Part shown: piece after piece, positions 2,363-35,826 of the stretch
Layout: each line of letters begins with the position of its first letter
Position numbering within the stretch: position 1 is the stretch's first letter
Assembly (NCBI GenBank): GCA_900177435.1
Contig: FXAI01000008.1
Span: forward strand, 50,689-114,688
Source: Alteromonadaceae bacterium Bs31
Lineage (GTDB): Bacteria; Pseudomonadota; Gammaproteobacteria; Pseudomonadales; Cellvibrionaceae
Direction: 5' to 3'
Length of the DNA: 64,000 bases
Program-made: the position numbers and the translations under genes
The notes under the pieces: model-generated
Databases searched by the model: none
What the model was told of the DNA's origin: nothing
Seen by the model: only the letters and a program-made list of their open reading frames with translations

Positions 2363-2398
2363 CAAAGGCATCAACTTTAGACACTAGGGTCGGTTTAG

Positions 2399-5107: not shown

Positions 5108-5118
5108 GCTAAGGTGAA

Positions 5119-5153: not shown

Positions 5154-5188
5154 TTTAATCAGAGGTTCCCTAGGCTAAAACAATCGGA

Positions 5189-6200: not shown

Positions 6201-7760
6201 CTATTTCAGCTCAACGACTACGATGGATTTTGCTGGCAAAGTGAGTACCAGCTCTCCTTTATCTGCCTTCGCAGAGAAAGCCTCAGGCTGGATATTTTCA
6301 GGCTTATCAAAGGTATTGTGAGTGTCCATATGCTTTGCCGTAAGAATACTGCCTTGAGCGGTTTTTATAGGCTCATTCGCTTTTACCTTAAGTTTTAGAG
6401 GCTTGCTCGGAAATGGATTTACCAGGGATAACCAGATCTTGCCATCCTTGCTTTCGGCTGCCGAAGCACTTAAGCCGGGAATGCGTTTGTCGTTGCTAGT
6501 GTAGTCGGGGCTGCCGGTAATATTGTATGCCAGAGTTTTCGCATCCTGAAAAGGAATGTACATTTTAAAGGTGTGGTAAGTGGGAGTGAGCAACATTTTT
6601 TCTTTGTCGGTGAGGATCATTGCCTGCAATACATTTACCATCTGTGCGATGTTGCTCATATGAATGCGTTCTGCATATTTGTGAAACACATTTAAATTAA
6701 CGGCTGCTACTACCGCATCACGTAAGGTGTTTTGCTGAAACAAGAAACCTGGGTTATCACCTTCCATGGTGTCGTACCAGGTGCCCCACTCATCAATATA
6801 CAAACCTATTGTTTTGTCCGGGTCATGTTCATCCAATACTGCGATATTGTCTTCGATAAATTTCTCGATTCTTAAGCTCTGCCATAAAGTGCTGAACCAC
6901 TCGTGTTCAGAAAAGTTTAAGGCAGCACCGTGTTTTTCCCAGTTGCCTGTTGGCAATGTGTAGTAGTGGTGGCTTATGGCGTCCATACGCAGGCTCCAGC
7001 TGGGTTTTATATTTTTTACCAGAGTTTCCGTCCAGATGGTCTCAGCTTCCGTGCCGCCACTGGCGATAAGTATGGGACGATTATCCGAAGGGGTTTTGAG
7101 GAAGGTAGCGTAGTGTTTGTATAAATCGCTATAGTACTGGGGAGTCATGTTGCCACCGCAGCCCCAGGACTCGTTGCCAATCGCGAAGTAATGTATTTTC
7201 CAAGGCTTGTCGCGGCCGTTGGCTCGGCGAAGCATCGCCAGGCTAGAGTCGCTGTCTGAAGTCATATATTCAAGCCAGGCAGCCATTTCACGCGGAGTGC
7301 CTGTGCCCAGATTGCCATTGATATAAACCTCTGCCTCCAGCATTTCTGCAAGTTCAAGAAATTCGTGAGTACCAAAAGCGTTGTCGTCGATGACACCGCC
7401 CCACGTGGTATTCACCGTTTTTTTGCGTTGATTGCGGGGACCGATACCATCTTGCCAGTGGTATTCATCGGCAAAACAGCCGCCGGGCCAGCGCAGTAAA
7501 GGCACTTGTAGCTCTTTAAGGGCTTTAAGAACGTCCTTTCGATAACCGTTTTTGTTCGGGATCCTGGACTTTTCTCCTACCCAGATACCTTCGTAAATAC
7601 CTCGGCCGAGGTGCTCCATAAACTGGCCGTATATATTGCGGTGAATAATTGGGCCTGGTTTTTTGGTGTCGATGGTGACAGTGATATGGGGCTCATCCGC
7701 GTGGCAGAGCAAGGCTAGAGTGCAGCACAGTGCAACACCCAGGGTTAATACGTGTTTCAT
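6201..7760 (-). CDS. abfA: Secreted alpha-L-arabinofuranosidase of glycoside hydrolase family 51.
   Basis: Signal peptide MKHVLTLGVALCCTLALLCHA. The catalytic-region sequence reads GQFMEHLGRGIYEGIW...LRWPGGCFADEYHWQDGIGP...YFAIGNESWGCGG. A GAAGG RBS precedes the ATG at 7758-7760. Confidence 0.85.
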   Translation of the reverse strand: MKHVLTLGVALCCTLALLCHADEPHITVTIDTKKPGPIIHRNIYGQFMEHLGRGIYEGIWVGEKSRIPNKNGYRKDVLKALKELQVPLLRWPGGCFADEYHWQDGIGPRNQRKKTVNTTWGGVIDDNAFGTHEFLELAEMLEAEVYINGNLGTGTPREMAAWLEYMTSDSDSSLAMLRRANGRDKPWKIHYFAIGNESWGCGGNMTPQYYSDLYKHYATFLKTPSDNRPILIASGGTEAETIWTETLVKNIKPSWSLRMDAISHHYYTLPTGNWEKHGAALNFSEHEWFSTLWQSLRIEKFIEDNIAVLDEHDPDKTIGLYIDEWGTWYDTMEGDNPGFLFQQNTLRDAVVAAVNLNVFHKYAERIHMSNIAQMVNVLQAMILTDKEKMLLTPTYHTFKMYIPFQDAKTLAYNITGSPDYTSNDKRIPGLSASAAESKDGKIWLSLVNPFPSKPLKLKVKANEPIKTAQGSILTAKHMDTHNTFDKPENIQPEAFSAKADKGELVLTLPAKSIVVVELK

Positions 7761-7785
7761 AGGGGCCTTCTGTATTTTTATGATT

Positions 7786-8331
7786 CTATTCGCACCAGTA
7801 CTCTGCTCGATACAGGCTTTTTGCGCAAATAACTTTGCTATCAAAGTTACCGCTTATACCTCTGCGCAATGATTTAAGCATCCAGGCATCCCTGTGCTTG
7901 TCTGCTATATGATAGGGGGCGCTGAGCCCGAAACGGTACGCAGGCTCAAAGCCGAAACGGGTGTAGTAGCGGGGATCTCCAAGAACGAAGACAATATCTA
8001 TCCCCTGTTCCTCCAGAAGGTGCAAGCCTCTGTGGACCAACGCAGAGCCGCAGCCCTGCTTTTGGTAAGCGGGAACAACAGCCAGAGGGGCGAGTAGAGA
8101 AATTTGCAGCCCGTGTTCACCTTCCAGCTCTGCGTGCGTGAACAGCACGTGGCCCACAGGGGTATCCTGTTTATAGGCCAGCAAGGAGAGTATTGGTGTT
8201 GCACTTGGGTCTGCCAGCAGGTTTTTTGTCAACTCGGCTTCTTCATTGGTTTCGAAGGCGGCTTGCTCAACGCTAACAATGTGCCCGAGCTGCTGCTCAC
8301 CGCCATGAATGATTTGAATGTCGTTATTCAT
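7786..8331 (-). CDS. GNAT family N-acetyltransferase.
   Basis: Acetyl-CoA binding motif QKQGCGSALV...GIDIVFVLGDPRYYTRFGF. In-frame ATG at 8329-8331. Confidence 0.75.
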   Translation of the reverse strand: MNNDIQIIHGGEQQLGHIVSVEQAAFETNEEAELTKNLLADPSATPILSLLAYKQDTPVGHVLFTHAELEGEHGLQISLLAPLAVVPAYQKQGCGSALVHRGLHLLEEQGIDIVFVLGDPRYYTRFGFEPAYRFGLSAPYHIADKHRDAWMLKSLRRGISGNFDSKVICAKSLYRAEYWCE

Positions 8332-8401
8332 TGTGGTTTGCAATCCAAGTTGATGGAAGGAACGTAAACCTATCATACATAAATTTAATGAGTGTTGACC
8401 T

Positions 8402-8956
8402 ATGCTAGGTTTTATTACGCGCCCCCGCTCGCTAAGGATTTTGGCGTTCGTTGCAGGCTTAAGCTTATTGGGTGCTTGCTCATCCCCTGATATTTCCCAA
8501 TACGAAGGTACGCTGCCGCTATTAGATGTAAAGGACTATTTTGACGGTCATTTGAGTGCGCACGGGATAGTAAAAAATCGAGCAGGCAAGGTGATTCGCA
8601 CCTTTAATGCTGATATTACCGCAAGCTGGAGCGAGGAAGGGATAGGCCGCCTACATGAAACCTTTTTATTTAGTGACGGTGAAGAGCAAATCAGGGTGTG
8701 GCAGTTAGTGCCCCTCGGTGATGGCAAGTATCGAGCAAGCGCCAACGATGTCGTTGGTGAGTCTGTGTTGGTTAGTGCAGGCAATGCGCTGTTTTTGAAT
8801 TACATCCTGGAAGTACCCTACAAGGACGGCACTATGCCGCTGCGGGTTGATGATCGCATGTACCTGGTGAATGATCAGATGCTGATAAACGAATCTATTC
8901 TCAAAAAATTTGGTATACGCGTAGCCTCGGTGACCTTAGTTATTGTTAAGCATTAG
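8402..8956 (+). CDS. DUF3833-family lipoprotein.
   Basis: Lipoprotein signal ...LLGACSSP. The conserved stretch LDVKDYFDGHLSAHGIVKNRAGKVIRTFNADI is typical of this family. Confidence 0.55.
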   Translation: MLGFITRPRSLRILAFVAGLSLLGACSSPDISQYEGTLPLLDVKDYFDGHLSAHGIVKNRAGKVIRTFNADITASWSEEGIGRLHETFLFSDGEEQIRVWQLVPLGDGKYRASANDVVGESVLVSAGNALFLNYILEVPYKDGTMPLRVDDRMYLVNDQMLINESILKKFGIRVASVTLVIVKH

Positions 8957-9006
8957 CACACTGCTGCTCACACGGCTTGTGAGCGGAAAAATGCTATTCT
9001 TGTGCA

Positions 9007-9795
9007 ATGCTTATAGACACCCACTGCCACATGGATTTTGCCGCGTTCGACAGCGACCGCAACGCTGTCATCAGCCAGTGCCGGCAGCTTGGGGTGGAGC
9101 AGCTGATCTGCCCAGGCGTGTCGCCACAGCAGTGGCCCAAGCTGGACGCTCTGGCGAAGCGTTATGAGGGGGTGGCTTACGCGGTGGGTATTCATCCCTG
9201 GTTCATATCCTCCTTAGCGGATACTCCTCAGGCTTTCTCCTTAGCGCAATACGATGATCAATTGAAAAACATTGTCGCTGGCCAGCTGCGCTGTGTTGCC
9301 ATTGGTGAATGCGGTCTGGATGCAAAGATCGATGTGCCCTTAGCCCTGCAGCAAGAGGTGCTGGAATGGCATTGTCATCAAGCGCAAGCGCTGCAGCTTC
9401 CTCTGATTGTTCACTGTGTGAAGGCCCATAATGAAATGCTGCAGTGTCTAAATAATTTTCCAGAAGTGAAAGGGGTGATTCATGCCTTCAGCGGCAGTAT
9501 TGAATTGGCGGAAAATTATTGGCAGCGGGGTTTTTTACTGGGTGTTGGTGGCACTATTACCTACGAGCGAGCCTCTAAAACCCGATCTAGCTTGAGCGCT
9601 ATGCCTCTGGAAAGCCTTTTGCTTGAAACGGACGCTCCGGATATGCCTTTGCAAGGTCAGCAGGGGCATCGCAACAGCCCGGTAAACCTGGTGGCGATCG
9701 CACAGCAGCTCGCTCAATTACGAGGCATAAGTGTCGAGGCGGTAGCTGAGGCCACTAGCCGAAACGCCAAGGGCTTATTTGGCAGACTAAGCTAG
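9007..9795 (+). CDS. tatD: TatD family metal-dependent hydrolase (DNase).
   Basis: MLIDTHCHMDF..., GIHPWF, GECGLD and LLETDAPDM motifs. Confidence 0.85.
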   Translation: MLIDTHCHMDFAAFDSDRNAVISQCRQLGVEQLICPGVSPQQWPKLDALAKRYEGVAYAVGIHPWFISSLADTPQAFSLAQYDDQLKNIVAGQLRCVAIGECGLDAKIDVPLALQQEVLEWHCHQAQALQLPLIVHCVKAHNEMLQCLNNFPEVKGVIHAFSGSIELAENYWQRGFLLGVGGTITYERASKTRSSLSAMPLESLLLETDAPDMPLQGQQGHRNSPVNLVAIAQQLAQLRGISVEAVAEATSRNAKGLFGRLS

Positions 9796-9796
9796 T

Positions 9797-10594
9797 TTAT
9801 CCGCTGGCCTTTAAGTAGCGTTCCAGGGCTTTAGCTGCAGCCGCAAAGCCAAAGCTGCCGGTTACCATCACCGAAGAGCCAAAGCCTCCAGCGCAGTCCA
9901 GTTTTACGCCGTCCTGTAAAAATTGCTTGCTGTTGCAAACATTGCCATCCGGTTTTGGGTAAACCATTTGTTCTGTTGAATAGACTGCGTCGATGCGGAA
10001 GCGGCGATTTTTACTGCGCGCAAAATTATGCTTGTGATAGAGAAGGTTGCGCAGTTTGGCTAGCAGCGGGTCACTTTTGGTACAGCCTAAGTCGTCTACG
10101 CTTATTGCAGAGGGGTTTGTTTTTCCCCCCGAAGAGCCACAGGTAACAAGACGCATTTTATTTGCGCTGCAAAAGGCTGCGAGGGCGGCTTTAACATGCA
10201 CAGAGTCGGTAGCGTCCACTACAATATGCTGCTGCTTTGAAATGTAATCTGGAATATTACTGACGGTTAAAAAGTCGTGAATAGTATTTAGCGTTAACTC
10301 AGGGTTGATAGCCTGTAAGCGCTCGCTGATAACCGTGTTTTTTGACTGGCCGATATGCTGTGAGGTGGCGTGAAGCTGACGGTTGGTATTAGTAATACAG
10401 ATATCATCCAGCTCGATAAGAGTTAATTCGCCGATGCCGCTGCGCGCCAGCGCCTCTGCAGCCCAGGTGCCCACTCCCCCTAAGCCAATCACCACAAAGT
10501 GAGCGCGAGCCAGCAAGGGCAGGGCAGAGGCACCGTACAAACGGGCGACACCGCCGAAACGCGCCAAATAATTTTCTGATAATTCTTGAGTCAT
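9797..10594 (-). CDS. tcdA: tRNA threonylcarbamoyladenosine dehydratase (ThiF/MoeB-like E1 fold).
   Basis: Rossmann motif VIGLGGVGTWAAEALARSGIG..., TLIELDDICITNTNRQ. Confidence 0.85.
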   Translation of the reverse strand: MTQELSENYLARFGGVARLYGASALPLLARAHFVVIGLGGVGTWAAEALARSGIGELTLIELDDICITNTNRQLHATSQHIGQSKNTVISERLQAINPELTLNTIHDFLTVSNIPDYISKQQHIVVDATDSVHVKAALAAFCSANKMRLVTCGSSGGKTNPSAISVDDLGCTKSDPLLAKLRNLLYHKHNFARSKNRRFRIDAVYSTEQMVYPKPDGNVCNSKQFLQDGVKLDCAGGFGSSVMVTGSFGFAAAAKALERYLKASG

Positions 10595-23041: not shown

Positions 23042-23221
23042 TTATTTAATGGCCTCTTTTATTTCCTGCATTGCTTTCATCATGTCTTCGTCCAGCTCTG
23101 CGGTATTGATTTTTTTTATAATATTGGAAAGCACGCGTTTCTCGTTGTCGTCCACTACGCCATCGCGTTTTGCAAGTGAAAATAGCTCCCTTAGTTCGCT
23201 TGCATCCAGTTTACCGTCATT
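23042..23221 (-). pseudogene. Possible remnant of a TerB-like (DGxxDxxEL repeat) small protein. The N-terminal part of the called ORF runs into an inverted-repeat element.
   Basis: C-terminal portion reads NDGKLDASELRELFSLAKRDGVVDDNEKRVL..., reminiscent of TerB tandem acidic motifs. There is no plausible ATG or RBS in that region, and the ORF's first 30 codons lie inside the inverted repeat at 23249-23272. Confidence 0.2.
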
Positions 23222-23248
23222 GGCGAAGCAATTGATAGAACGAAAACA

Positions 23249-23523
23249 AAGGAACCTCTGAGTAAGTCCAAAATGTCTCTGCGTGACCTGGAGCGTACAG
23301 GTGCAAGGCAAATTTTGCCGTTAATGGCCTAAAGTCCTTAACAAAAAATTTAACGCCGCAGATGTGCGCTCCAGGCCACGCCCTTCGGGGCTCCACAGGT
23401 TTTCTCTGCTCTGCGTTGAACTTTTTTGACTTAACCCGTTAGGCCTGCAAAAGTTCGTCTTGATCAGAAAAAACCTGTGAAGCCAGAGGCATCTTGGACT
23501 TAATCAGAGGTTCCTTAAGCTCC
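23249..23523. repeat. MITE-like element or long imperfect palindrome of about 270 bp, bounded by 23-bp inverted repeats that extend imperfectly to about 40 bp.
   Basis: aaggaacctctgagtaagtccaa at 23249-23272 and ttggacttaatcagaggttcctt at 23495-23517 are reverse complements with one mismatch. The motif TTAATCAGAGGTTCCyTArGCT also occurs at 5156-5177. Confidence 0.4.
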
Positions 23524-23557
23524 AAGTAGTCTCTGCTTTCTGTCATGTGGCGTTCTC

Positions 23558-24085
23558 CTAGTCAAATTTAGTGTTTATAAAATGTTTAATGTCTGAGCGT
23601 TTGGGGTGCGCATCTACCCATTCTTTAAACGCTTCTACTTTTGAAAAATCGCTCTCTCCAATGATTTTAGAAAAGTGCGCATGCATACTGGACTTTTCTT
23701 TTTGTCGGCGGATATTGCGTTGCCAGGCCTCGGTAAACACCGAAGAGAGTTTCTTATGAAGGTCGAGGGTTTTTACCAGGTCCCACTCACCGGCGTCGAG
23801 CCATACTTCATCGCAGTGAGAGCACAGCTCCAGCCGGTTTTGCGTGTTTACGCCAATACGGTATTTGGTCATCATACCGCTGCATTTAGGGCATTGTTTG
23901 GCACCTGCGGCTTCTTCCGCGAGTTCGGTGTGTATGTCGCTAATTTCGTGGCTGTGCTCAGACCAGAAACGATAGTTCATGAGTGGCAGCAAGGCACCTT
24001 TGCATTTGGGGCAACTTGCAGCTAAAAGCCCATGTTCAAGTTCGCTGGGTTCCAGCTCGGTATTTTTACAGCTACAACATTTCAT
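23558..24085 (-). CDS. Tandem zinc-ribbon protein (two zf-TFIIB-like CxxC...CxxC ribbons plus a C-terminal domain of unknown function).
   Basis: CSCKNT...CPKCKG and CPKCSGMM...CSHCDEVWLDAGEWD, matching the C..C.GvWlD.gEl pattern. Its ATG at 24083-24085 abuts the stop of the upstream PLD-like gene. Confidence 0.6.
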   Translation of the reverse strand: MKCCSCKNTELEPSELEHGLLAASCPKCKGALLPLMNYRFWSEHSHEISDIHTELAEEAAGAKQCPKCSGMMTKYRIGVNTQNRLELCSHCDEVWLDAGEWDLVKTLDLHKKLSSVFTEAWQRNIRRQKEKSSMHAHFSKIIGESDFSKVEAFKEWVDAHPKRSDIKHFINTKFD

Positions 24086-24777
24086 TGTTTGCCTCCGTAT
24101 TTTTCCCAAAGCCCCTCAAAGCAGTTGATAAATTCCCGAACTGCCTTTGGGTGATGAGTGATGAGAATATTTTCCTGGTTTCGTTCACTGGCGCTCCGTG
24201 TCCAGTTAAAGCTCCCGTTAAGTAATATAGCTTTATCGAAAACAGCAAACTTGTGATGCATATGGTTAGTGCTGTTGTCCATTCTTACATCCAAGCCTTG
24301 GCGTATTAATAAGTCGATATCCGAGCCATCATCGTTTGATTTATCGTCATCTGTAATGATGCGTACGTTTATGCCGCGCTTGTGAGCACTGATGAGGGCT
24401 TCGCTGATGCGGTTGTCAGAAATCGTAAACACGCATATATCGATACTGGACTTTGCTTTATGGCAGCTATCCAATATCGCCCTGCGACATTCCTCTCCGG
24501 GGCTGAAGTAGCTTTTAGGTGGCTGTATAGCGGCACTGCCATCCAGTGCCTTAATGCTCCGTTCCAGCCACTGCAGGGCTCGATTCGCTTGTGGGCAGCC
24601 TGTTTCGAATAGGTGATGCCTGAATAAATCGAAGGCACGATTTTTTAAAAATCGTACGTCTTCTTCGTCCAGTGTGGCGGCTAAGTTGCGAAGACTTTGT
24701 TTTTCTTCACCACTCAGGCGGTAGTCTTCAAAGGTTTGTTTTAACGAGTTTTCTAGAGACTGTTTTGATGTGCTCAT
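24082..24777 (-). CDS. Phospholipase-D superfamily protein with a single HKD motif (Nuc-like endonuclease / PLD-like).
   Basis: HKD motif HHKFAVFD...GSFNWT. The N-terminal 90 aa are helical with no signal peptide. A 4-bp ATGA overlap joins it to the upstream rhomboid gene. Confidence 0.75.
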   Translation of the reverse strand: MSTSKQSLENSLKQTFEDYRLSGEEKQSLRNLAATLDEEDVRFLKNRAFDLFRHHLFETGCPQANRALQWLERSIKALDGSAAIQPPKSYFSPGEECRRAILDSCHKAKSSIDICVFTISDNRISEALISAHKRGINVRIITDDDKSNDDGSDIDLLIRQGLDVRMDNSTNHMHHKFAVFDKAILLNGSFNWTRSASERNQENILITHHPKAVREFINCFEGLWEKYGGKQ

Positions 24778-25339: not shown

Positions 25340-28300
25340 CTAAAGCTGTTTGCTTCCTGCCAATTTTTCCAGCGATCGAAGCTGCTCAGATACTTCTGAC
25401 ATTTTATCGTGGGTGCGTAAATCAATTTCCAGCTTTTTGTCCATGCTCCTAACAAGGGGAAATATGCTGTTCTCGATGGTGTCTGCCAGTACTTTGAGTA
25501 ATTGATCTATTCCTGGAACCGGCTGGTTTACCACTTCTACTTTGGGCGCTTCTTTATTGGTATTCGCCAGTGCGAGTGCTTGCAGGCCGTCTGCAAACTT
25601 ACTCAAGGCTGCGCGCAGTAGCTTACGTTCTTTGTCTATGGCTTTAGCTTGTTGCTCGCTGGCCCCGTCTTTTGAGCTATTTTCCGCGCTAGCCGCTAAA
25701 TTGCGAACGCCGCTAACTAGGTCCGCCAGTTGGGCAACTACCTTGCTGCCTGTATCAGTATCATCACCACCCATGGCTTTATTGCGTAGAAAGTCGGCCT
25801 TAATTTGTTGCCAGCGTTGGCTTTGTAGCTCGGTCATATTGCCGCGCAATTCAGCAAGTTTTAGAAGGTTTTCTTCCGCACCTGCTGTGAGCAACTGAGC
25901 TTCGCCCAGGTAGTGGTCTTCAATCAGCTGCATGAGTTCACTCTGGTTCATTACGGCTGATATTTTTTCGCCCATTTTATTCATGTTGCGGTAGCTGCCT
26001 TGTAACTTAAAAGGCGGCTCGTTGCGGTATTTATCTGCCTGTGCGGCAGAAACAATGTATTGCTGATTAATTTTTAGCACCACGTCACGAATTACGTAGA
26101 GCTTTTTAAGCACGTCGACTATTTCGTTAATTTCTGCACCGCTGTATTGGTGGCTTAAATCAGTTGTGGCTACCTCTTTATCGTTAGCCAGATCCATAAG
26201 AAGGTAAACATCTTTAATGTCGCGGGTGGCTAGTGGCGCGAGTACCGGGTTGGAGGTAAGGCTGTTTTCGATATAGCTCATGGCGAACTGCTCGTCCATT
26301 CCGCCGAGGATATCACCCAGGTTATAAATGTCCGCCCTGTTGGCCAACATGTCCGGGATTTTAAATACCTCGCCAGATTCGGTATAGGGGTTACCCGCCA
26401 TGACTACGCAGAACTTTTTGCCTCGCATGTCGTAGGTTTTTGTTTTTCCTTTCCACACGCCTTCAATGCGTCGTGTGCCATCACACAGGGAAATAAACTT
26501 TTGCAGAAACTCGGGGTTGGTATGCTGTATATCATCCAGGTAGAGCATGACGTTATTGCCCATTTCCAGAGATAAATTGAGTTTATGCAGTTCCTGTCGT
26601 GCGGTGGCATTGGGTGCTTGTTCCGGGTCGAGAGATAATACCTCGTGGCCGAGAGAAGGGCAGTTGATCTTCATGAAGATCAAGCCCAAGCGGCTGGCGA
26701 CGTATTCCATCAAGGTGGTTTTACCGTAGCCGGGAGGTGAGATCATCATCAACAGGCCCATGAGGTCCGTTCGCTTATTTTCACCAACGGTTCCCATCTG
26801 CTTGGCGAGGTTGTCCCCAATAATGGGAAGATAGGCTTCGTTGATAAGCCTGTTGCGAACAAAGGAGCTTAAGGGGCGTGCTTTAAATTCTTCAAGCCGT
26901 AAGCTATCTCTTTCGCGATTGACGATGTTTTGTCGAGTTTCCAGATACTCGCGATAGCCGGTAACAAATTCGCTGCGGTGGTGGTTGAGCCTGAGGAAGA
27001 AATCGTCCACGGCGATAGAGAGAACGCGGTTCTCCACCCGCTTATGCTCGCCCATGAGGCCTTCGACACTTAACTCCAGATCGGCCTCTGTCAGCCTTCT
27101 ATCGATGCGCTCATCGGCGTTAATAAGTGCAGCCGCTTCGGGAATGTAGCGTTCGAGATGTTGCAGTTCTTTATCTTTCACCAGCGCGGAAAGCCAGGCG
27201 CAGCTGAGCTTCCAGCGTTCCGCTGGCCAGCCCAGCATTTTTTCCAGGGCCACTTGAAAGCGCCGCCAGCTATCGTCGTCCAGGCTGCGTTTTAGTTCAT
27301 CTGCCAGTTGCCTTGCGTATTTGCTGCCGATAAATTCGGTGCGCTCACGGCCCAACTCCGTAACCAGGTATTCCGCTGCTCGCCGTATTACCAGTGGGCT
27401 TACATTTATGGGGTGAATGCTTATAAACTCTCGCATAGCAGTGTGGACTTCTTCTGCCAGTAGCTCGTGTGCTTCGCCGCTGGTGAAGTGATCGCGCATT
27501 TTTGCTGCAGAAAGGGCACGCTCGGTCCAGGTTTCATAGGTGAGGCGTTTGCTTTTTAGCTGCTCGGATATACGTTGAATATTTGCCCAGAACACCTGCG
27601 CCAGCCCCCGGCTTTTGGGGTCGAAAATCAACAAGTCCGCGGCATCCATTGCGGGTAACAAGCGCTGCAGTATTTTTGCCGCGTCGTGGTCGTGAATGCC
27701 TTTTTCGTAACCCTCTTTGTAGCGAGGGGTGGCGAACTCTCTTACCAGTTTAAGCAGGCTGTTTTCATCCAATAGAGCTTGCGCGAGTACTTGCTGGTTT
27801 AAATTGTCTTCCTGTCGTTCGGCAGCATGAATAATACTGGCGGCGAGATATTCTGCCCGGTAAACGGAATCGCTTTCGGACTCCAGAGTTACCTGCCAAT
27901 AGGGTTGCAGTTCTTTTAGCGCGGGGTCTTCAATGGGTTCAAAGAAATCCGTTCCGGTAAGATGAATGTTCAGGTCGTCACCGCGAGGTAAGATGGTGAG
28001 ATCAAGCTCTTGGGTATTAACGCTGAATTTATGGCGTGGGCCCAGTTTAATAACCGAGCCGCCCCCTTCGTAAATATCTGTTTTATCACGCAGTACACGC
28101 AGCGCCTGTTCTTTTGCTGCTTTAAATTTTGATTCAATATCGTCCGCTTTTACGGCGGAACTGAGTTCACGCAGTTGCTGGATAAATTCACGTATTTTTA
28201 ATACCAGCGCATCGGACGCGAAATAGGTGTTGAGCTTGTCCGCTTCGGTAAACTTGGTGGAGCGTTTTTCTATACTGCTGAGTACTCGATTGGCGGCATC

Positions 28301-30658
28301 GGCAATTGACTGCGCGCGACGTTCCCGATCATCAAGTAAACGTTGCTTATGGGATTCAAAAGTTTCGTAGATCTCCTCCCGCTTGGACATAATATCCGTA
28401 AGAAATTGATCGTACTCACTAAACTGGCTTTCGAGTTCTTCCAGTTGAACTAATAGTCTCGACATCTGCTCGTCGCAGCTCTCTGGCGAATTTGCCATAC
28501 CCAGGGCATTGGTGATGCTTTGGGTAAAGAGCTTAAACTGCGCTGCGAATTCAGCGATAGCTTCCGATGAACCAAGGTTTTTTTGTTTGTGCCGTGCGTC
28601 GGCTTTGCATTGGTTGAGTTTTGCGTACACTTCGGAGATAGCATCTATAATCCGAGTGCGCATTGTGGTGTCTTCAACTTTTAGGGTTGATAGCAGTTCC
28701 GACAGTAAATCCAAACCAGCAGCGGTTTTTTCCACCGTTTCAATAAGCGGGTTAAGCTCTGCAATGGTTGCTACGGTTTCGACGTCTGCATTTATGGTTT
28801 CAATTTTTAGATAGTAAGGCTGTAGCGCGTTCTCATCGGCCAAAAATTCTACCGTTCGTTCACTAAGCTGTTGCTGAGCCTGAGCCAGTTGCTCTTCCAT
28901 TTTACTGATGGCAGCGGTATTAATGTAACGGTAGGATTTTATGGTGGCGAGCTGGCCAGCGTGCTGGCGCAACTCGTCCAATGCCTGCACATAGGCTTCG
29001 GCACTGTCCCAGGATGACGAGCGAATGGTTTCTATCAGTTTTTTGTGTTTTGCTTTTGCGTCGTTTAAGGCTTGGCTGCTTTGTTTGCGTATACTTTCTA
29101 CTTTGGCAAACTCATCGATTGCCAGCTCCGCAGTGGCAGAAACCTCCCGCAGCGTTATTGCGATGGTTTCCAGTCCATCGACCCCTGATTTAGATTCCGC
29201 CACCCAATAGTGATTATCGAAAACTTTTAATGCGGCGTTGGATAGCTCTTCGTAAAGCCGAACGGATACCGATTGATTATCGATAGTGCGGCAAACACTG
29301 AGTAAGTCTGAAATACCGCGTACCAGTGGTGCATTACCAATGCGGCCAAGAAAAGATTGGCTTGCTGGTGCTTTGCTGGCGAATTCGTCACTGATGTAAG
29401 GCGTGTGCCAGATTTGCATGGGGTGAACGCGTGTGGGTTCTTCCTCGGCGGAAAAAATTACCAGCTGGCCTGCGTCTGATAGCGCATAGCCGTGTGCAAA
29501 AATGGGGTTGGCCAGCTTTTTATCAATCATGTTGTAGGCCATCAGGCCCACGATGCCCTCGGCAGGCTCGTAGAAAACATAAAGCACATCTTCACCGTTG
29601 GGTGAGCGAATCATGCGTTTAAAGCGCAAGCCTTCGTGCTCTTCATCGAAAGTTTTGTTTTCTCCGCTTTGCAGGTAATAACCGCCGGGGAAAACAATGC
29701 CATGGTCTTCAGGCAGTTGAACGCAGGAAGCGCCTATGGCGTCTATCCTGTTCACTTCTGCGGTGAGAGTATTAAAAACGAAATAGCGCCATACATCTTC
29801 CCTGTAGGGCAGTATTTTAATAAGAATTAAATCGCCAAGGGCGGCGTAGCAGTATTCAGCATCGTCGATGGATTGCGTTTTATCTTCAACATCTTCGCGA
29901 TAGACTCCCAGGCCATCTTCAGTATTGTTTTCGATTTTAATGGTAAGGTCGCCACCCACGGCTTCTACAAATACCTTGTCTAAAATATTTACATGGGGGT
30001 GCCTGCCGTGAACGGCATCTTCTCGGGTACACTCTGTCCATTCAAAATCATAGGCGGGTGGCAGCTGAATATCTCGTTCACCACGGTTGTCTATATAGTC
30101 TACTTTCTTTCCGTCGGGGGAGACTGCCCAGCGAAAGACTCGGATATCTTCTAGCCGCTCACCAATCTGGAAGCCCATTAACAATTTGCCATTTTTAATG
30201 GTTAGCTCAACCAGCTTGGTATGCTTGTAGTAGCGATAGAGTTCAGTGAAATCCTGAACGAAGCTTCGATTGGCGAGAAAAGAGCTTTCGGTGGCTTGTT
30301 CTTCCAGCTGAAGGTTTTCGTCTTCGCCTTTCAATTTAAACAGGGCGAAAACATCATCCACCAGAGTCTCTTTTTTCAGGCCGATAAAAACGTTGTAGCC
30401 AAAGAGCAGGGTATCACCGACTTGAACGATATCCCGAGCAATACAGTTGTTTTCCGTACGCACGCGAACTCGTGCTGCCACAGCCATTTCTGAGCTGCCG
30501 AATTCACTGAGACGCGCGGCATTTAAATTTCGGGCATGCTGTTCGAGAGTTTCGCCCTGCTCCAGCAAGCGCTTTTTCAATACCTCGTAGGCACCGCCTT
30601 CTGAAACGGCCTTGTCTACCAGGTTTTCTTCATTTTCCTGTTGACGATCTGTCGCCAT
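25340..30658 (-). CDS. Giant 1772-aa protein with an N-terminal globular region, a central region of about 600 aa of coiled-coil, and a C-terminal AAA+ ATPase (MoxR/AAA_5-like) domain followed by a further coiled-coil tail.
   Basis: Walker A SPPGYGKTTL, Walker B VMLYLDDIQ, sensor-1-like VVMAGNPY, and an Arg-finger-like MLANRADIYNLGDI. Long heptad-like stretches (e.g. EEQLAQAQQQLSERTVEFL...). RBS AAGGAAG 4 nt upstream of the ATG at 30658. Confidence 0.7.
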   Translation of the reverse strand: MATDRQQENEENLVDKAVSEGGAYEVLKKRLLEQGETLEQHARNLNAARLSEFGSSEMAVAARVRVRTENNCIARDIVQVGDTLLFGYNVFIGLKKETLVDDVFALFKLKGEDENLQLEEQATESSFLANRSFVQDFTELYRYYKHTKLVELTIKNGKLLMGFQIGERLEDIRVFRWAVSPDGKKVDYIDNRGERDIQLPPAYDFEWTECTREDAVHGRHPHVNILDKVFVEAVGGDLTIKIENNTEDGLGVYREDVEDKTQSIDDAEYCYAALGDLILIKILPYREDVWRYFVFNTLTAEVNRIDAIGASCVQLPEDHGIVFPGGYYLQSGENKTFDEEHEGLRFKRMIRSPNGEDVLYVFYEPAEGIVGLMAYNMIDKKLANPIFAHGYALSDAGQLVIFSAEEEPTRVHPMQIWHTPYISDEFASKAPASQSFLGRIGNAPLVRGISDLLSVCRTIDNQSVSVRLYEELSNAALKVFDNHYWVAESKSGVDGLETIAITLREVSATAELAIDEFAKVESIRKQSSQALNDAKAKHKKLIETIRSSSWDSAEAYVQALDELRQHAGQLATIKSYRYINTAAISKMEEQLAQAQQQLSERTVEFLADENALQPYYLKIETINADVETVATIAELNPLIETVEKTAAGLDLLSELLSTLKVEDTTMRTRIIDAISEVYAKLNQCKADARHKQKNLGSSEAIAEFAAQFKLFTQSITNALGMANSPESCDEQMSRLLVQLEELESQFSEYDQFLTDIMSKREEIYETFESHKQRLLDDRERRAQSIADAANRVLSSIEKRSTKFTEADKLNTYFASDALVLKIREFIQQLRELSSAVKADDIESKFKAAKEQALRVLRDKTDIYEGGGSVIKLGPRHKFSVNTQELDLTILPRGDDLNIHLTGTDFFEPIEDPALKELQPYWQVTLESESDSVYRAEYLAASIIHAAERQEDNLNQQVLAQALLDENSLLKLVREFATPRYKEGYEKGIHDHDAAKILQRLLPAMDAADLLIFDPKSRGLAQVFWANIQRISEQLKSKRLTYETWTERALSAAKMRDHFTSGEAHELLAEEVHTAMREFISIHPINVSPLVIRRAAEYLVTELGRERTEFIGSKYARQLADELKRSLDDDSWRRFQVALEKMLGWPAERWKLSCAWLSALVKDKELQHLERYIPEAAALINADERIDRRLTEADLELSVEGLMGEHKRVENRVLSIAVDDFFLRLNHHRSEFVTGYREYLETRQNIVNRERDSLRLEEFKARPLSSFVRNRLINEAYLPIIGDNLAKQMGTVGENKRTDLMGLLMMISPPGYGKTTLMEYVASRLGLIFMKINCPSLGHEVLSLDPEQAPNATARQELHKLNLSLEMGNNVMLYLDDIQHTNPEFLQKFISLCDGTRRIEGVWKGKTKTYDMRGKKFCVVMAGNPYTESGEVFKIPDMLANRADIYNLGDILGGMDEQFAMSYIENSLTSNPVLAPLATRDIKDVYLLMDLANDKEVATTDLSHQYSGAEINEIVDVLKKLYVIRDVVLKINQQYIVSAAQADKYRNEPPFKLQGSYRNMNKMGEKISAVMNQSELMQLIEDHYLGEAQLLTAGAEENLLKLAELRGNMTELQSQRWQQIKADFLRNKAMGGDDTDTGSKVVAQLADLVSGVRNLAASAENSSKDGASEQQAKAIDKERKLLRAALSKFADGLQALALANTNKEAPKVEVVNQPVPGIDQLLKVLADTIENSIFPLVRSMDKKLEIDLRTHDKMSEVSEQLRSLEKLAGSKQL

Positions 30659-30667: not shown

Positions 30668-30889
30668 TTAGCAGTCTGAATGCTCTGCCAGCTCTACATC
30701 AGTTTGTTCGTTGCTTTCCACGGTAAAAAGAGCGCTTGCCAAAAGGCCAGCCAGTAAGCCCGCTCCGGCACCCATTGCGGTACTGCTCAGCACGGAATTA
30801 TTCTTAGTACCGTGTATTGCGCCAAGCCCGGCTCCTATTGCGCTGGCCAGTGGTGTTATCTTTTTTAAAGAAATATCGTTGTCGTCCAT
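30668..30889 (-). CDS. Small glycine-zipper membrane protein (GxxxG/AxxxG repeats), 73 aa.
   Basis: AIGAGLGAIHG and AMGAGAGLLAGLLASA segments. RBS AAGGAAG before the ATG. It ends 10 nt before the giant ATPase gene. Confidence 0.5.
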   Translation of the reverse strand: MDDNDISLKKITPLASAIGAGLGAIHGTKNNSVLSSTAMGAGAGLLAGLLASALFTVESNEQTDVELAEHSDC

Positions 30890-30962: not shown

Positions 30963-30997
30963 AATCAAAAAGCGGTGAAACCAAGGGCTTCACCGCA
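30963..30997 (-). terminator. Rho-independent terminator after the flotillin gene (read on the minus strand).
   Basis: Minus-strand sense GCGGTGAA-gcccttggt-TTCACCGC followed by TTTTTG. It separates the yqiJK-like transcript from the downstream five-gene unit. Confidence 0.55.
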
Positions 30998-31004: not shown

Positions 31005-32996
31005 TTACTCGGGTTTTACATCTGTTGTGGTGCTGGCCGCCTGGGCGCCTGCAGAGTAGGCCATCACTTTCTCCAAGAGGGTAGAGATGGTTGCGCTCTT
31101 GCCTGCTAGACCGTCTACCGCTTTGCCAATGGACAGAGATTTGGCAAAGTTATCAAAGAAGTGCGCTTCGCCGCCCACGATATCAATATGTGCTTTCTGC
31201 AGCGCGGTTGCCAGAACCTCGGCATTTTCTTTGGCGATTTCTTTGCCGGCTTCAATGGCTGCGATGGCTTCGTTAAAGGCGGTTTCCAGAGTCATGCGGA
31301 ATTCTTCGTGGTCACGAGCCTTATCGCTCATATTGCCCATGGCTTCGAATTTGTCTACAAGACCGTCTGCTTCGGCTTTGAATTGCTCGCGAGTAACCTC
31401 AGCTTTTGCTACGCCGGTTTCGCGTACGGCTTTGGCTTCGGCCTCACCTTTAAAGCCAATAACATTAGCCTCTGCAGTACCTTCTTTCTCCAGGGCCACA
31501 GCTTTTGCTTCTTGCGCTTTCGCTTCTGCTTCACCTTTGGAGGCAATTACACGAGCTTCTGCAACACCTTCCTTCTCCAGTGCGTCGGCTTTGGCTTCCT
31601 GAACCTTGGCCTCAGCAAGGCCGGAGGCGGCTTCTTCTGCCTGAACGCCTTCAGCCATTTTCTTCTTGGCGTCGGCCTCTTTAGCGGCGGCTTCAAGCTC
31701 TGCTTGTGCGAGAACTGTTATTTCCACCGATTTGTGTTTGGCAGCGAGCTCTTTTGCTTCCGCCTCTTTTACAGTTTGAACTTTTTCTTCTTCGGCTTTG
31801 GCTTCTGCTTCCAGAATTTTTACTTGCTTAATACGGTCTGCCTCGGAAACTTCACGAACTTCTTTGATTTTCTCTTCTTCAATGGCAACGGTTTTATCCA
31901 CCACTACACGTTCGCGGATAACGTTGGCAATTTCCTTTTTCTCCACTTCGATGGCTTTTTCTGCTTCAATACGCTGTAGCTCCACCTCTCTTTCGCGGGA
32001 GACGATTTCCAGGTCTTTCGCCCGGGTAACCTTTTCCACCTCAATGACTACTGCACGTTGACGGTTTTGCTCCGCAACCTCAATTTCACGCTGCTGATTT
32101 TCCTCTTGAACTTTTAGGTCCTGATCCACAAGTAAGGTCGCCATATCGGCTTTCTTGCGTTCTTCTTCCTGAATGCGTTTTGTTTCAGCTTCTTCTCGCG
32201 CTTGAATACTCAGGATCTCCCGCTGCTGACGAGCCTCGGCATCGGACTGCTGGCGCTCCAGCTCCAACATGGCTTCAACGGTTTCCACATTTTTCTTTTT
32301 AATGGCCAGCTCTTCGTCGCGCTCGAACACGTTGGTTTGAACGTTTTGTGTGGCAGTAAGCTCGGTGATTTTGCGAATACCTTCGGCGTCGAGGATGTTG
32401 GCTGGGTCGAGAGAGGATTTAGGTGTTTGTTCCAGGTAGTCGATGGCCACGTCTTCCAACGCGTAGCCATTAAGATCATTTCCGATGACCTCAACAATTT
32501 TATCGCGGAACTCTTGCCTGTCTTCAAAAAGCTTAACGAAGTCCAATTGCTTGCCAACTGTTTTTAAGGCTTCTGAAAATTTTGCGTTAAACAATTCATT
32601 GACTGCGTGTTTATCGGACGCTCGATCGGCGCCAAGTGACTTGGCAACCTTTAAGACGTCTTCCGGTGTTTCATTAACGCGCAGATAAAAGGCGACGGTA
32701 ATATCTGCTCGCATATTATCGGCACATATCAGCCCCTCTTTCCCTCGTCGGTCCACTTCAAGGGTGATTAATGATATGCGCATTAATTCCTTTTTGTGTA
32801 TAACCGGCAATATCCATGAGCCAGTAAAAAATACTTTGGGTTTAGTGCTTAGGTCATTTTTAATTAAAGCAACGCCTTGTTCTACCTTTACATAGAAAGC
32901 TTTAAATAGCGCCATTATGCCGAGGATGAATAGGAATAGTACGCCAACGACAATAACTATCATCGTAAATAAAGGCAGATGATCTGGCATAGGCAT
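31005..32996 (-). CDS. yqiK: Flotillin-family protein (SPFH/band-7 domain plus a long Glu/Ala/Lys-rich coiled coil), YqiK-like.
   Basis: N-terminal TM segment, SPFH core (GVALIKND...ITLEVDRRGKEGLICADNMRADITVAFYLRV) and a flotillin-type EA-repeat region with internal ~25-aa tandem repeats. Confidence 0.85.
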   Translation of the reverse strand: MPMPDHLPLFTMIVIVVGVLFLFILGIMALFKAFYVKVEQGVALIKNDLSTKPKVFFTGSWILPVIHKKELMRISLITLEVDRRGKEGLICADNMRADITVAFYLRVNETPEDVLKVAKSLGADRASDKHAVNELFNAKFSEALKTVGKQLDFVKLFEDRQEFRDKIVEVIGNDLNGYALEDVAIDYLEQTPKSSLDPANILDAEGIRKITELTATQNVQTNVFERDEELAIKKKNVETVEAMLELERQQSDAEARQQREILSIQAREEAETKRIQEEERKKADMATLLVDQDLKVQEENQQREIEVAEQNRQRAVVIEVEKVTRAKDLEIVSREREVELQRIEAEKAIEVEKKEIANVIRERVVVDKTVAIEEEKIKEVREVSEADRIKQVKILEAEAKAEEEKVQTVKEAEAKELAAKHKSVEITVLAQAELEAAAKEADAKKKMAEGVQAEEAASGLAEAKVQEAKADALEKEGVAEARVIASKGEAEAKAQEAKAVALEKEGTAEANVIGFKGEAEAKAVRETGVAKAEVTREQFKAEADGLVDKFEAMGNMSDKARDHEEFRMTLETAFNEAIAAIEAGKEIAKENAEVLATALQKAHIDIVGGEAHFFDNFAKSLSIGKAVDGLAGKSATISTLLEKVMAYSAGAQAASTTTDVKPE

Positions 32997-33730: not shown

Positions 33731-34084
33731 TTATTGTTCTTTTATATCGTTCACAGGCGGCGTAGACAGGGCATCCACTATGAGCGCAGTGGCTATCACC
33801 GCGAATATAATACTGCCGGGATAAATGCGTTCAAAGGCGATAGCTGCGGAAGTAAACCAGAGTAAACAGCTAATTGGAATGATGGCGCTCAATATAATGA
33901 TGTCTTCACCCCAAATTTCTGCCAAGCTGCCGCTTATATAGAACACCAAGCCGAGTAAAATTAGCCAGGGTTCGGCGAATAGTGCGCCGAGTACCAGTGC
34001 CGCGATAAGTCCAAGAGAGCGATGCTCAATATATTTCGCTCCATAACCGTCCAATGGGGGGAGTTTAAATCCATAGTGTTTCAT
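33731..34084 (-). CDS. Small integral membrane protein, possibly YjfL/DUF350-like.
   Basis: 117 aa with four hydrophobic helices, positioned after a YjfJ-like PspA gene. The family assignment is by context only. Confidence 0.4.
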   Translation of the reverse strand: MKHYGFKLPPLDGYGAKYIEHRSLGLIAALVLGALFAEPWLILLGLVFYISGSLAEIWGEDIIILSAIIPISCLLWFTSAAIAFERIYPGSIIFAVIATALIVDALSTPPVNDIKEQ

Positions 34085-35540: not shown

Positions 35541-35558
35541 GGGTCCTACTCTATTTCA

Positions 35559-35613
35559 TTACATGTGAGATGTAAATAGCTTACATGTAATATATTTTGT
35601 TATTACATGTAAT
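35559..35613. promoter_or_regulatory. Three TTACATGTAA-type palindromic operator-like sites in the divergent promoter region.
   Basis: TTACATgtgagATGTAA at 35559-35575; TTACATGTAA at 35581-35590 and again at 35604-35613, spaced about 22 bp apart, in an AT-rich 145-bp intergenic region between divergent genes. Confidence 0.45.
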
Positions 35614-35826
35614 TTTTTTATAGCGATATTTCGCCTACTTTAAATTTCACACTATTCCACAGCGCTTGTTTGTGAATGGCCGGGGTTGCGCAATGTGCGA
35701 GGGTCACAAAGCCTGCGCTTGCTCGCGGGGGCGTTTTGTTCTGGGATGTCTGTCACTTCATTGCTTCCTTCAATGGCGCATTGTTTGGCTAAAGAAAAGG
35801 GCGTGCTCAGTGGGGTAGCACAGTAT

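Follow-up and report, generated by a model that had tools for sequence, protein, structure and literature searches.

The window (the whole stretch of 64,000 nucleotides analysed here) encodes a predicted cytoplasmic single-HKD phosphodiesterase of the PLD6/MitoPLD-Nuc clade, hereafter the PLD, whose gene appears to be the last widely conserved member of an operon with the order BacA (DUF2170), PspA, YqiJ-like, flotillin and AAA+ (DUF3686). By sequence and gene order it is the ortholog of BacF of the bac/PspA envelope-stress operon, a cluster that is already known (PMC10948618, PMC11237479), and we are highly confident of both its identity and its membership of the operon. The best reading of its role, to which we assign a probability of roughly 0.45, is that of a membrane-proximal phosphodiesterase within a PspA/flotillin remodelling system, with lipid probably being acted on. 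The enzyme belongs to a known family, and an HKD hydrolase in the CesT/Tir-PspA-flotillin-AAA+ class of PspA operon was reported earlier by Ravi et al. 2024 (PMC11237479); the papers on BacF (PMC2587700, PMC10948618) list it only as a 'hypothetical protein', with its PLD nature unnamed. The features of the region are collected in Table 1.

Table 1. Positions in the window of the PLD gene, the neighbouring genes and associated elements.
Feature	Position	Strand	Basis
Single-HKD PLD-superfamily phosphodiesterase, BacF ortholog, PLD6/MitoPLD-like, 231 aa	24082..24777	(-)	Pfam PLDc_2, AF2, Foldseek
HKD catalytic motif, H174-H-K176-FAVFD181-KAILLN-G188-S-F-N191-W-T	24199..24258	(-)	sequence reading and alignment
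N-terminal four-helix domain of the PLD, family-specific, residues 1-90	24508..24777	(-)	25 homologs and AF2
Small TerB/EF-hand-like gene at the cluster end, 78 aa if intact, interrupted here by a 268-bp insertion	23042..23546	(-)	homologs
Protein of 175 aa with two zinc ribbons (zf-TFIIB type) and a C-terminal three-helix region	23558..24085	(-)	Pfam Zn_ribbon_TFIIB
Minimal six-TM rhomboid intramembrane serine protease, 184 aa	24774..25328	(-)	Pfam Rhomboid, E 5.4e-18
Giant AAA+ ATPase, BacE ortholog, 1772 aa (DUF3686 + DUF7902 + AAA_5)	25340..30658	(-)	Pfam
Small ORF for a 73-aa glycine-zipper membrane protein, 9 nt before the AAA+ start	30668..30889	(-)	sequence reading
Terminator-like hairpin, 11-bp stem with 7 GC, then TTTTTG, just 3' of the flotillin-like gene	30972..30996	(-)	consensus scan only
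Flotillin/YqiK-like membrane scaffold, BacD ortholog, 663 aa	31005..32996	(-)	source names and literature
YqiJ/YuaF-like multi-TM protein, BacC ortholog, 227 aa	33030..33713	(-)	YqiJ_N, weak, E 0.046; literature
PspA/IM30 family protein, BacB ortholog, 230 aa	34198..34890	(-)	Pfam PspA_IM30, E 2e-46
DUF2170/CesT-Tir-like protein, BacA ortholog, first operon gene, 212 aa	34902..35540	(-)	Pfam DUF2170, E 1.7e-48

The PLD had been read in an earlier note, from the sequence alone, as a single-HKD Nuc/PLD6-like protein, and this is borne out. There is a significant match to Pfam PLDc_2 (110.7 bits against a cutoff of 27, E 5.8e-32) in a single stretch covering residues 105-224, giving one HKD domain per chain with a profile score over the curated threshold. 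The motif reads H174-x-K176-x4-D181-x6-G188-S189-F-N191-W-T, as in HxK(x)4D(x)6GSxN, and its residues are invariant in an alignment of 25 homologs, together with N200, E202 and N203. The AF2 model (mean pLDDT 90.9) has the PLD alpha/beta fold, and Foldseek returns the Zucchini/PLD6 structures 4ggk and 4ggj as best matches, followed by Nuc (1byr) and NucT (6ehi), with E 1.4e-14 and a target-normalised TMt of 0.81 for 4ggk and E 4e-13 and a TMt of 0.83 for 1byr. A profile search of the PDB places MitoPLD/PLD6 first (E 3.5e-41, 144 bits), above all other PDB chains, with Drosophila Zucchini at 96 bits, Nuc at 81 and NucT at 57; the identity to MitoPLD/PLD6 is 43% across the 115 aa of the catalytic core. 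The family matches of the PLD, the rhomboid and the zinc-ribbon protein are all strong and far beyond chance.

The catalytic domain is preceded by about 90 residues that had been described as a helical extension with no signal peptide, and both points hold. The AF2 model resolves this segment into four helices (residues 5-16, 23-35, 38-59 and 64-79), it is conserved in the 25 homologs (L12, D18, E25, N46, F49, W70 and L71), and neither the alignment nor the model contains a hydrophobic leader or membrane-binding segment in the PLD N-terminus. A phmmer search with this domain against 1.84 billion representatives gives 51 matches, all N-terminal and all in proteins of <=286 aa; the 12 that were fetched all belong to the PLD family, whether whole or in truncated or frameshifted form, and no other architecture with the domain was found among these representatives. 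We found no Pfam family for it, and an hhalign comparison with the small TerB/EF-hand-like protein of the operon is weak (probability 8%).

The PLD gene lies in a tight minus-strand array in the order DUF2170/BacA, PspA, YqiJ-like, flotillin-like, DUF3686 AAA+, rhomboid, PLD and zinc-ribbon, with intergenic gaps of -4 to 33 nt apart from two exceptions. The rhomboid and zinc-ribbon neighbours were recognised in the earlier note, but the upstream genes, from DUF2170/BacA through PspA, the YqiJ-like and flotillin genes to the DUF3686 AAA+ gene, were missed. The BacA homolog scores 313.9 bits against the NCBIfam 'biofilm formation regulator BacA' equivalog (cutoff 300). No sigma-54 site is present upstream of it within one mismatch, and matches to the sigma-54 consensus across the window are no commoner than chance. 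An Rfam scan of the 22.5-36 kb part of the window identifies no RNA family. The YqiJ/YuaF-like gene keeps its position in 51 of the 80 genomes or loci with a close PLD homolog that make up our neighbourhood sample, which is anchored on the PLD. Homologs of the 663-aa flotillin-like protein are named 'flotillin family protein' or 'YqiK, Band7/PHB/SPFH' at NCBI; Pfam gives nothing for it even at E 10, single-sequence and profile searches reveal no PDB relative, and an hhalign comparison with a verified Band_7 protein is collinear and weak (E 0.008, probability 5%). Because its own sequence tests are weak, the flotillin identity leans on the source names and on Ravi et al.

The giant AAA+ protein, whose gene ends 11 nt before the start of the rhomboid gene, matches DUF3686 (E 1e-207), DUF7902 (E 4e-28) and AAA_5 (E 8e-6); a PDB search with it gave no match and a literature search on DUF3686 gave no papers. 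Immediately upstream, the small glycine-zipper membrane ORF has a weak match to Gly-zipper_YMGG (E 0.005) and no homolog in the 80 loci, and is lineage-specific. The hairpin that follows the flotillin-like gene is possibly an internal attenuator, which would give two levels of expression within the operon.

The published bacE/bacF RT-PCR primers (Wallart) match a P. aeruginosa contig (L082) exactly; the forward primer falls in the 3' end of the DUF3686 AAA+ gene and the reverse primer spans the start of the PLD coding sequence (codons for MDFDGLD). The primers map only the bacE/bacF junction, the genes being named from its flanks, and from the exact match at this junction we take bacE to be the AAA+ gene (DUF3686/DUF7902, 1746 aa) and bacF to be the PLD gene. 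The PLD at the BacF position in L082 and that of the window share 51% identity, and the N-terminal domain is common to both. In P. aeruginosa bacA-F are co-transcribed, and a bacA mutant has BacE up 8.9-fold and BacF up 6.1-fold (PMC10948618). A literature search on PA3727 returned only a typo or unrelated studies.

Within the sample, the AAA+ gene is directly upstream of the PLD gene, or of its rhomboid, in 57 of the 80 loci, and these AAA+-PLD clusters span Pseudomonas, Cellvibrio, Lysobacter and Oceanospirillales. In the locus view the other 23 (~29%) have the PLD away from the AAA+ cluster, about 20 of them standing alone and three with a rhomboid only; among the stand-alone homologs are one from a betaproteobacterium and one on a planctomycete-like contig. 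Since these 23 homologs do not lie beside the AAA+ cluster, the PLD would seem to have no strict need for the operon.

The 4-bp overlap with the rhomboid gene that had been recorded previously is present, the stop codon of the rhomboid gene and the start codon of the PLD gene sharing ATGA (...CGAACATGAGCACA...). The rhomboid residues H55, H60 and N64 (TM2 HxxxxHxxxN), G109-A-S111-G (TM4 GxSG) and H163 (TM6) are conserved in 50 homologs, and the protease looks active; it does not reach the rhombosortase model (33 bits against a cutoff of 84). It adjoins the PLD in 49/80 loci, in three different contexts, and is located between the AAA+ and PLD genes in 46 of the 57 AAA+-PLD clusters, and this adjacency across loci supports a functional link between the two proteins. 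Two genomes of Cellvibrionaceae have the PLD-rhomboid pair beside genes for NfeD and an SPFH/Band_7 protein (E 4e-39), which replace the bac cluster. A literature search on the combination of rhomboid, flotillin and NfeD found none.

A second ATGA joins the stop codon of the PLD gene to the zinc-ribbon ATG (...AAACAATGAAATGT...), and because of this overlap we place the zinc-ribbon start at ATG 24085 and not at the TTG (24109) given by the ORF finder; the 175 aa read from ATG 24085 are identical to the deposited SMF47313.1. The coupling of the two genes was correctly noted as a tight junction, although they overlap rather than abut. The duplicated zf-TFIIB ribbons are likewise recovered, with a Pfam Zn_ribbon_TFIIB match (E 8e-8) in two stretches. 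This is a small family (32 matches) in which eight Cys, DEAWLDxGEW and FTDAWQRNIR are conserved; the AF2 model has a pLDDT of 80, and a PDB fold search with it gives nothing significant. The gene is present in 13 of the 57 AAA+-PLD clusters and absent from 44, can precede or follow the PLD, and is carried by the Motiliproteus cluster with neither PLD nor rhomboid. This distribution speaks against the suggestion that the zinc-ribbon protein is a nucleic-acid-sensing subunit of the PLD, and indicates that it belongs to the cluster, not to the PLD. Homologs of the small TerB/EF-hand-like gene (78-79 aa) are found in 25 of the 57 clusters, and in the window its ORF is restored once 23249-23516 is removed in silico; the TerB and EF-hand Pfam matches of its product are sub-threshold. 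The zinc-ribbon and TerB/EF-hand-like proteins are probably lineage-restricted accessories of the cluster.

Judging from its family, the PLD would act as a homodimer, with one active site formed out of two HKD motifs, and would cleave phosphodiesters via a phospho-histidine intermediate. The N-terminal four-helix domain may replace the membrane anchor of MitoPLD and could bind the enzyme to partners on the cytoplasmic side of the inner membrane, the co-inherited rhomboid being the most plausible of them. There the PLD might hydrolyse an anionic phospholipid (cardiolipin or PG) to phosphatidic acid, and lipid composition and curvature would then be altered at the sites of PspA and flotillin assembly and of their remodelling by the AAA+ protein. 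MitoPLD has been reported to convert cardiolipin to phosphatidic acid (PMC7072634). The membrane context for this reading is provided by the bac neighbours and by the NfeD-SPFH loci that carry the PLD-rhomboid pair. Taken by itself, lipid as the substrate stands at somewhat below even odds; the lipid activity of PLD6 is disputed, and comparison of charge and pI is uninformative as a discriminator, the catalytic domain being mildly acidic (median pI 6.4) with neither lipid nor nucleic acid favoured.

A different possibility, which we consider rather unlikely, is that the PLD is a Nuc/Zucchini-type nuclease, working in the cytoplasm on or close to the membrane to cut RNA or DNA as an output or housekeeping arm of the PspA/flotillin stress response. 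The solved members of the clade are deposited as nucleases (Zucchini, Nuc and NucT), and to our knowledge all of the biochemically characterised single-HKD homodimers except MitoPLD are nucleases (Nuc, NucT, BfiI and Zucchini). The top NCBIfam matches of the PLD are also NucT models, but these fall far under the cutoff (68 against 211 bits), and the conserved neighbours are all membrane or membrane-remodelling proteins, none of them nucleic-acid-binding; the 'DNA repair' associated with DUF3686 is a Pfam title only, without PDB support. PLD-family enzymes earlier assigned to the nucleases may also act on lipids, as the title of PMC12055030 has it for PLD3/4.

The reading suggested by the earlier note, in which the PLD would be a phage-defence or toxin effector, stoichiometric with the rhomboid and sensed or restrained by the double zinc-ribbon protein, is one that we regard as highly improbable. 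PspA systems do react to phage-inflicted envelope damage, there are ATGA overlaps at both ends of the PLD gene, and the PLD domain resembles the DrmC, DpdK and MkoC models (E 1e-9 to 1e-10). However, the NCBIfam scores are 36.4 bits against a cutoff of 133 for DrmC and 35.7 against 100 for DpdK, the PADLOC matches are limited to the generic PLD core, and none of eight neighbouring proteins matches a PADLOC defence model, bar coiled-coil noise on PspA. Furthermore, the position and gene order within what is a known bac operon are constant in gammaproteobacteria of several orders, a pattern typical of core genes rather than defence islands, the PLD is also found alone among ordinary metabolic genes, and the distribution of the zinc-ribbon gene given above does not fit a dedicated partner. 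With the PADLOC and NCBIfam matches of the PLD generic and sub-threshold, the defence-system reading is rejected, and the gene at 24082-24777 does not count as a candidate for defence or toxin function. That the PLD is a housekeeping enzyme of phospholipid synthesis, resembling cardiolipin, PS or PGP synthases, has next to no probability, since the deposited name that suggests it ('Phosphatidylserine/phosphatidylglycerophosphate/cardiolipin synthases and related enzymes') is a generic COG1502 label, the fold search ranks E. coli PssA no higher than 47th, and the PLD, at 231 aa and without a TM segment, has a single HKD in one PLDc_2 stretch, whereas enzymes of the Cls and Pss types have two HKD domains per chain.

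The bac/PspA operon influences biofilm formation, rhamnolipid production, swarming and virulence in P. aeruginosa, and we know of no enzyme with known activity in it. BacF as predicted here would be a PLD6-like phosphodiesterase with its catalytic residues intact, in an operon that otherwise reads as a catalogue of hypothetical proteins. In most gammaproteobacteria it is accompanied by the active-looking rhomboid, and the rhomboid-PLD pair is also tied to the separate NfeD-SPFH operon. It is, moreover, a bacterial protein with 43% identity to an animal enzyme for which cardiolipin versus piRNA precursors as the substrate has been argued for more than 10 years. In its fullest form, the membrane reading would make the BacF-type enzyme a lipid-remodelling cardiolipin/PG hydrolase, recruited via its N-terminal domain to the rhomboid in a PspA-flotillin-AAA+ membrane repair or remodelling machine, and the nearest prokaryotic relative of MitoPLD/PLD6; that all of this holds together is distinctly unlikely. 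If true, the bacterial set of SPFH protein, rhomboid, AAA+ and PLD6-like enzyme would be a counterpart of the mitochondrial SLP2-PARL-AAA+/MitoPLD machinery, and a tractable system in which to decide between lipid and RNA as the substrate of PLD6-type enzymes.

The closest of the known systems is that of P. aeruginosa, in which BacF (PA14_16200/PA3727) is the product of the last gene of bacABCDEF (Mace 2008, PMC2587700; Wallart 2024, PMC10948618). As in the window, bacF comes right after the DUF3686 AAA+ gene (BacE) in a DUF2170-PspA-YqiJ-like-flotillin-AAA+ cluster, and its product has an N-terminal four-helix domain and one HKD domain. Unlike the window, L082 has a 19-nt gap and no rhomboid between bacE and bacF, and no zinc-ribbon or TerB-like gene is seen in the contig; a sigma-54 promoter has been proposed for the P. 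aeruginosa bac genes, whereas none was found in the window. The word rhomboid has 0 occurrences in the text of Ravi et al. 2024 (PMC11237479), in contrast to the 46 of 57 clusters with a rhomboid here, and the double zinc-ribbon and TerB/EF-hand-like proteins are not mentioned there as operon members.

Mammalian MitoPLD/PLD6 and Drosophila Zucchini (4GGJ, 9LKX, 4GEL) have, like the PLD, one HKD per chain and a common fold, and for both MitoPLD/PLD6 and the PLD a cytosol-facing membrane surface is the actual or predicted site of action; the reported substrate of PLD6 is ssRNA and/or cardiolipin. MitoPLD/PLD6 has an N-terminal transmembrane anchor, whereas the PLD has a soluble or amphipathic four-helix domain found in the bacterial family only, and it lacks the piRNA-pathway context of MitoPLD and Zucchini. 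Because the N-terminal TM anchor is missing, we consider the PLD to be the nearest bacterial-type relative and not a PLD6 ortholog. Nuc (1BYR) and NucT (6EHI) share with it the single-HKD homodimer-type PLD fold and a similar core size, but Nuc (plasmid) and NucT (periplasmic) are far more distant than PLD6 (81 and 57 against 144 bits); they are secreted, whereas the PLD has no signal peptide and an extra N-terminal domain. The AAA+ component of the mitochondrial SLP2-PARL-YME1L (SPY) complex is an FtsH-type protease, as against the DUF3686/AAA_5 giant of the window. What the bacterial set, known from its genes, would have in common with SPY and MitoPLD is the parts list alone: an SPFH scaffold, a rhomboid, an AAA+ protein and a PLD6-type enzyme, which in mitochondria are associated with cardiolipin-rich membranes.

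The phospholipase-D-family (PLD) protein has an intact single-HKD catalytic core. Pfam PLDc_2 matches it in a single stretch, residues 105-224 (E 5.8e-32; 110.7 bits, where the cutoff is 27), and the HKD motif can be read in the sequence as H174-H-K176-FAVFD181-KAILLN-G188-S-F-N191-W-T; none of the motif residues varies among 25 aligned homologues, nor do N200, E202 and N203, and the domain assignment of an earlier note, made from the sequence alone, is correct. The N-terminal ~90 residues are conserved too (L12, D18, E25, N46, F49, W70 and L71 in the same alignment) and are modelled by AlphaFold2 as four helices (mean pLDDT of the model 90.9). They lack a hydrophobic leader, as expected of the helical extension without signal peptide described in that note, and with neither signal peptide nor transmembrane segment the protein is predicted to be cytoplasmic. 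A Pfam search gave no family for this N-terminal domain, and a search of 1.84 billion representatives placed it solely at the N-terminus of short proteins; all twelve matches fetched and read (12/12) are the same PLD family or truncated versions.

The PLD gene is a member of an operon. With the rhomboid and zinc-ribbon genes it lies at the tail end of a compact cluster on the minus strand, the upstream part of which lay outside the view of the earlier note. The first gene encodes a DUF2170 protein that scores 313.9 bits on the NCBIfam equivalog model 'biofilm formation regulator BacA' (cutoff 300) and the second PspA/IM30 (E 2e-46); a short ORF with no Pfam or NCBIfam match and no counterpart at the same position in 80 related loci separates these from the gene for a multi-TM protein of 227 aa that weakly matches YqiJ_N. 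The flotillin-like gene and a 1772-aa AAA+ ATPase (DUF3686, E 1e-207, with DUF7902 and AAA_5) follow, and then the rhomboid, PLD, zinc-ribbon and small TerB/EF-hand-like genes. Intergenic gaps are -4 to 33 nt, except for two of about 115 nt.

Coordinates of the PLD gene, neighbouring features in the window and compared loci from other genomes
Feature	Source	Coordinates	Strand	Length	Remarks
PLD	Window	24082-24777	-	231 aa	Pfam PLDc_2
ORF between PspA and YqiJ-like genes	Window	33731-34084	-	117 aa	Lineage-specific
Flotillin-like protein	Window	31005-32996		663 aa	Named flotillin/YqiK by NCBI sources
Terminator-like hairpin	Window	30972-30996	-		11-bp stem, 7 GC, then TTTTTG
Glycine-zipper membrane ORF	Window	30668-30889	-	73 aa	9 nt upstream of AAA+ start
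Small TerB/EF-hand-like gene	Window	23042-23546	-		Last in cluster, split by insertion
Insertion	Window	23249-23516		268 bp	Splits small TerB/EF-hand-like gene
Rhomboid-PLD pair by itself	L013	6926-8199
PLD-rhomboid-NfeD-Band_7	L078	9983-12682			Gene order, Pfam-confirmed
PLD-rhomboid-NfeD-Band_7	L080	9983-12716			Gene order, Pfam-confirmed
YqiJ-like, flotillin-like, AAA+, zinc-ribbon; no PLD/rhomboid	L083 (Motiliproteus sp.)	1716-10558

Several other features of the cluster can be described. Conservation of the flotillin-like protein is very high: alignment columns average 77% identity across orders, and the best-scoring 120 of 7,988 scored matches are all at least 75% identical. Sequence searches with it nevertheless hit neither a Pfam model at E 10 nor a PDB chain. 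Nine nucleotides past its gene, within the otherwise tight operon, is a strong hairpin that could be an attenuator lowering expression of the AAA+-rhomboid-PLD block. The glycine-zipper ORF, below the 110-aa cutoff of the window's ORF list, has a weak Gly-zipper_YMGG match and no homologue among the 80 loci. Upstream of the BacA homologue (35545-35615, minus strand), three TTACATGTAA-type palindromes, which may be an operator, overlap a sigma-70-like promoter match; this region has no sigma-54 consensus, whereas the P. aeruginosa proposal has one. By eye, the N-terminus of the BacA homologue, SAHYQREYRQRLRDMGLVKKEVWIL, looks like a ribbon-helix-helix motif.

Of 57 clusters, 25 contain the terminal TerB/EF-hand-like gene, which takes three different positions in them. 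The insertion within the window copy of the gene has terminal inverted repeats of 23 bp, AAGGAACCTCTGA[T/G]TAAGTCCAA (chance expectation 0), and excising exactly 268 bp gives back an unbroken ORF of 78 aa matching its homologues; the insertion looks like a MITE, of which no second copy was found within the window.

The 80 loci come from a search of genomes with the PLD alignment and represent Pseudomonas, Cellvibrio, Lysobacter/Marilutibacter, Hahella, Oceanospirillales and others; the window proteins were mapped onto them by tblastn. In 57 of them PLD comes immediately after the DUF3686 AAA+ gene, and upstream stand the flotillin-like, YqiJ-like, PspA and DUF2170 genes in conserved order. The other 23 homologues are away from the AAA+ cluster, about 20 alone among unrelated genes (including a betaproteobacterium and a planctomycete-like contig) and three with the rhomboid only (L013, L078 and L080). 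The last two, both Cellvibrionaceae genomes, have a stomatin-type NfeD-Band_7 operon (E 6e-9 and 4e-39) in place of the bac cluster. The rhomboid, whose gene overlaps that of PLD by ATGA as had been noted, has a Pfam match of E 5e-18 and retains H55/H60/N64, S111 and H163; it sits between AAA+ and PLD in 46 of the 57 clusters. To judge from the sequences, PLD is co-inherited with a rhomboid that keeps the full catalytic set, and this widespread pairing is an addition of the present analysis.

The zinc-ribbon protein was previously suggested as a possible nucleic-acid-sensing or regulatory subunit for PLD, a proposal that is not supported. The predicted close coupling is present, although the genes do not merely abut; the PLD stop and zinc-ribbon start overlap as ATGA, which places the start at ATG 24085 and gives a 175-aa product identical to the deposited SMF47313.1. 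The expected duplicated ribbons are also found (Zn_ribbon_TFIIB, E 8e-8, two stretches). However, the family is small (32 matches), the gene is in just 13 of the 57 clusters, before PLD in some and after it in others, and in Motiliproteus it directly follows AAA+ with no PLD or rhomboid within 20 kb, so that the protein does not depend on PLD. It thus appears to be a lineage-restricted accessory of the cluster, a demotion that the present analysis adds; according to Ravi et al. (2024, PMC11237479), other PspA operons repeatedly include proteins with a double zinc ribbon, for example B. subtilis YdjG.

The closest structurally determined relative of PLD is mammalian MitoPLD/PLD6 (PDB profile search, E 3.5e-41, 144 bits; 43% identity over 115 residues), followed by Drosophila Zucchini (96 bits), Nuc (81) and NucT (57), and Foldseek with the PLD model ranks PLD6 first, then Nuc and NucT. 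A membrane anchor is a defining feature of PLD6 and is absent here, and we therefore treat PLD as its nearest relative rather than an ortholog; scores to the NCBIfam NucT equivalog models are far under threshold. We tentatively favour action on lipid (probability roughly 0.4), since the conserved partners are without exception membrane proteins or proteins that remodel membranes, the PLD-rhomboid pair has an independent link to an operon of SPFH and NfeD genes, and for MitoPLD/PLD6, the closest relative to have been characterised, conversion of cardiolipin to phosphatidic acid is reported (PMC7072634). The enzyme would act as a homodimer by a phospho-histidine mechanism, recruited to the membrane by its N-terminal domain, with an anionic phospholipid as substrate. 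That PLD is instead a nuclease is somewhat less likely, albeit with precedent: to our knowledge, almost every single-HKD dimer that has been characterised is an enzyme that cleaves nucleic acid. Net charge does not distinguish between lipid and nucleic acid as substrate. The phage-defence or toxin effector suggested in the earlier note is very improbable, with matches to the DrmC, DpdK and MkoC models all far below threshold.

The window cluster corresponds to the bac locus of P. aeruginosa, described as pa3729-pa3732 (Mace et al. 2008, PMC2587700) and extended by RT-PCR to bacABCDEF (Wallart et al. 2024, PMC10948618); BacE and BacF, raised 8.9-fold and 6.1-fold in a bacA mutant (PMC10948618), are given just as hypothetical proteins in both papers. 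The published bacE/bacF reverse primer translates to MDFDGLD, the typical N-terminus of Pseudomonas PLD homologues, and a P. aeruginosa-like contig (L082) has exact matches for both bacE/bacF junction primers and one bacD/bacE primer. There a DUF3686 AAA+ gene (1746 aa) has the forward junction primer in its 3' end, and the reverse primer spans the opening codons of a PLDc_2 gene. These positions identify BacE as the AAA+ and BacF as PLD, identifications added here together with the PLD6-like affinity of the BacF-type enzyme. On L082 (6273-7189) the junction primers are 176 bp apart, versus a 501-bp product in the paper's table, and the PLD ORF diverges past '...SASVNNEE', probably through a frameshift or assembly error.

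The PLD finding lends itself to clear experimental follow-ups. The operon is already known and its PLD component already in print: Ravi et al. (2024, PMC11237479) classed it as CesT/Tir-PspA with a TM-band-7-flotillin, YqiJ/YuaF and a novel AAA+ containing coiled-coil and beta-propeller, to which an HKD hydrolase is added in some Proteobacteria, and nowhere mention a rhomboid in their text. The P. aeruginosa bac operon has no rhomboid between bacE and bacF, whereas the window cluster does.
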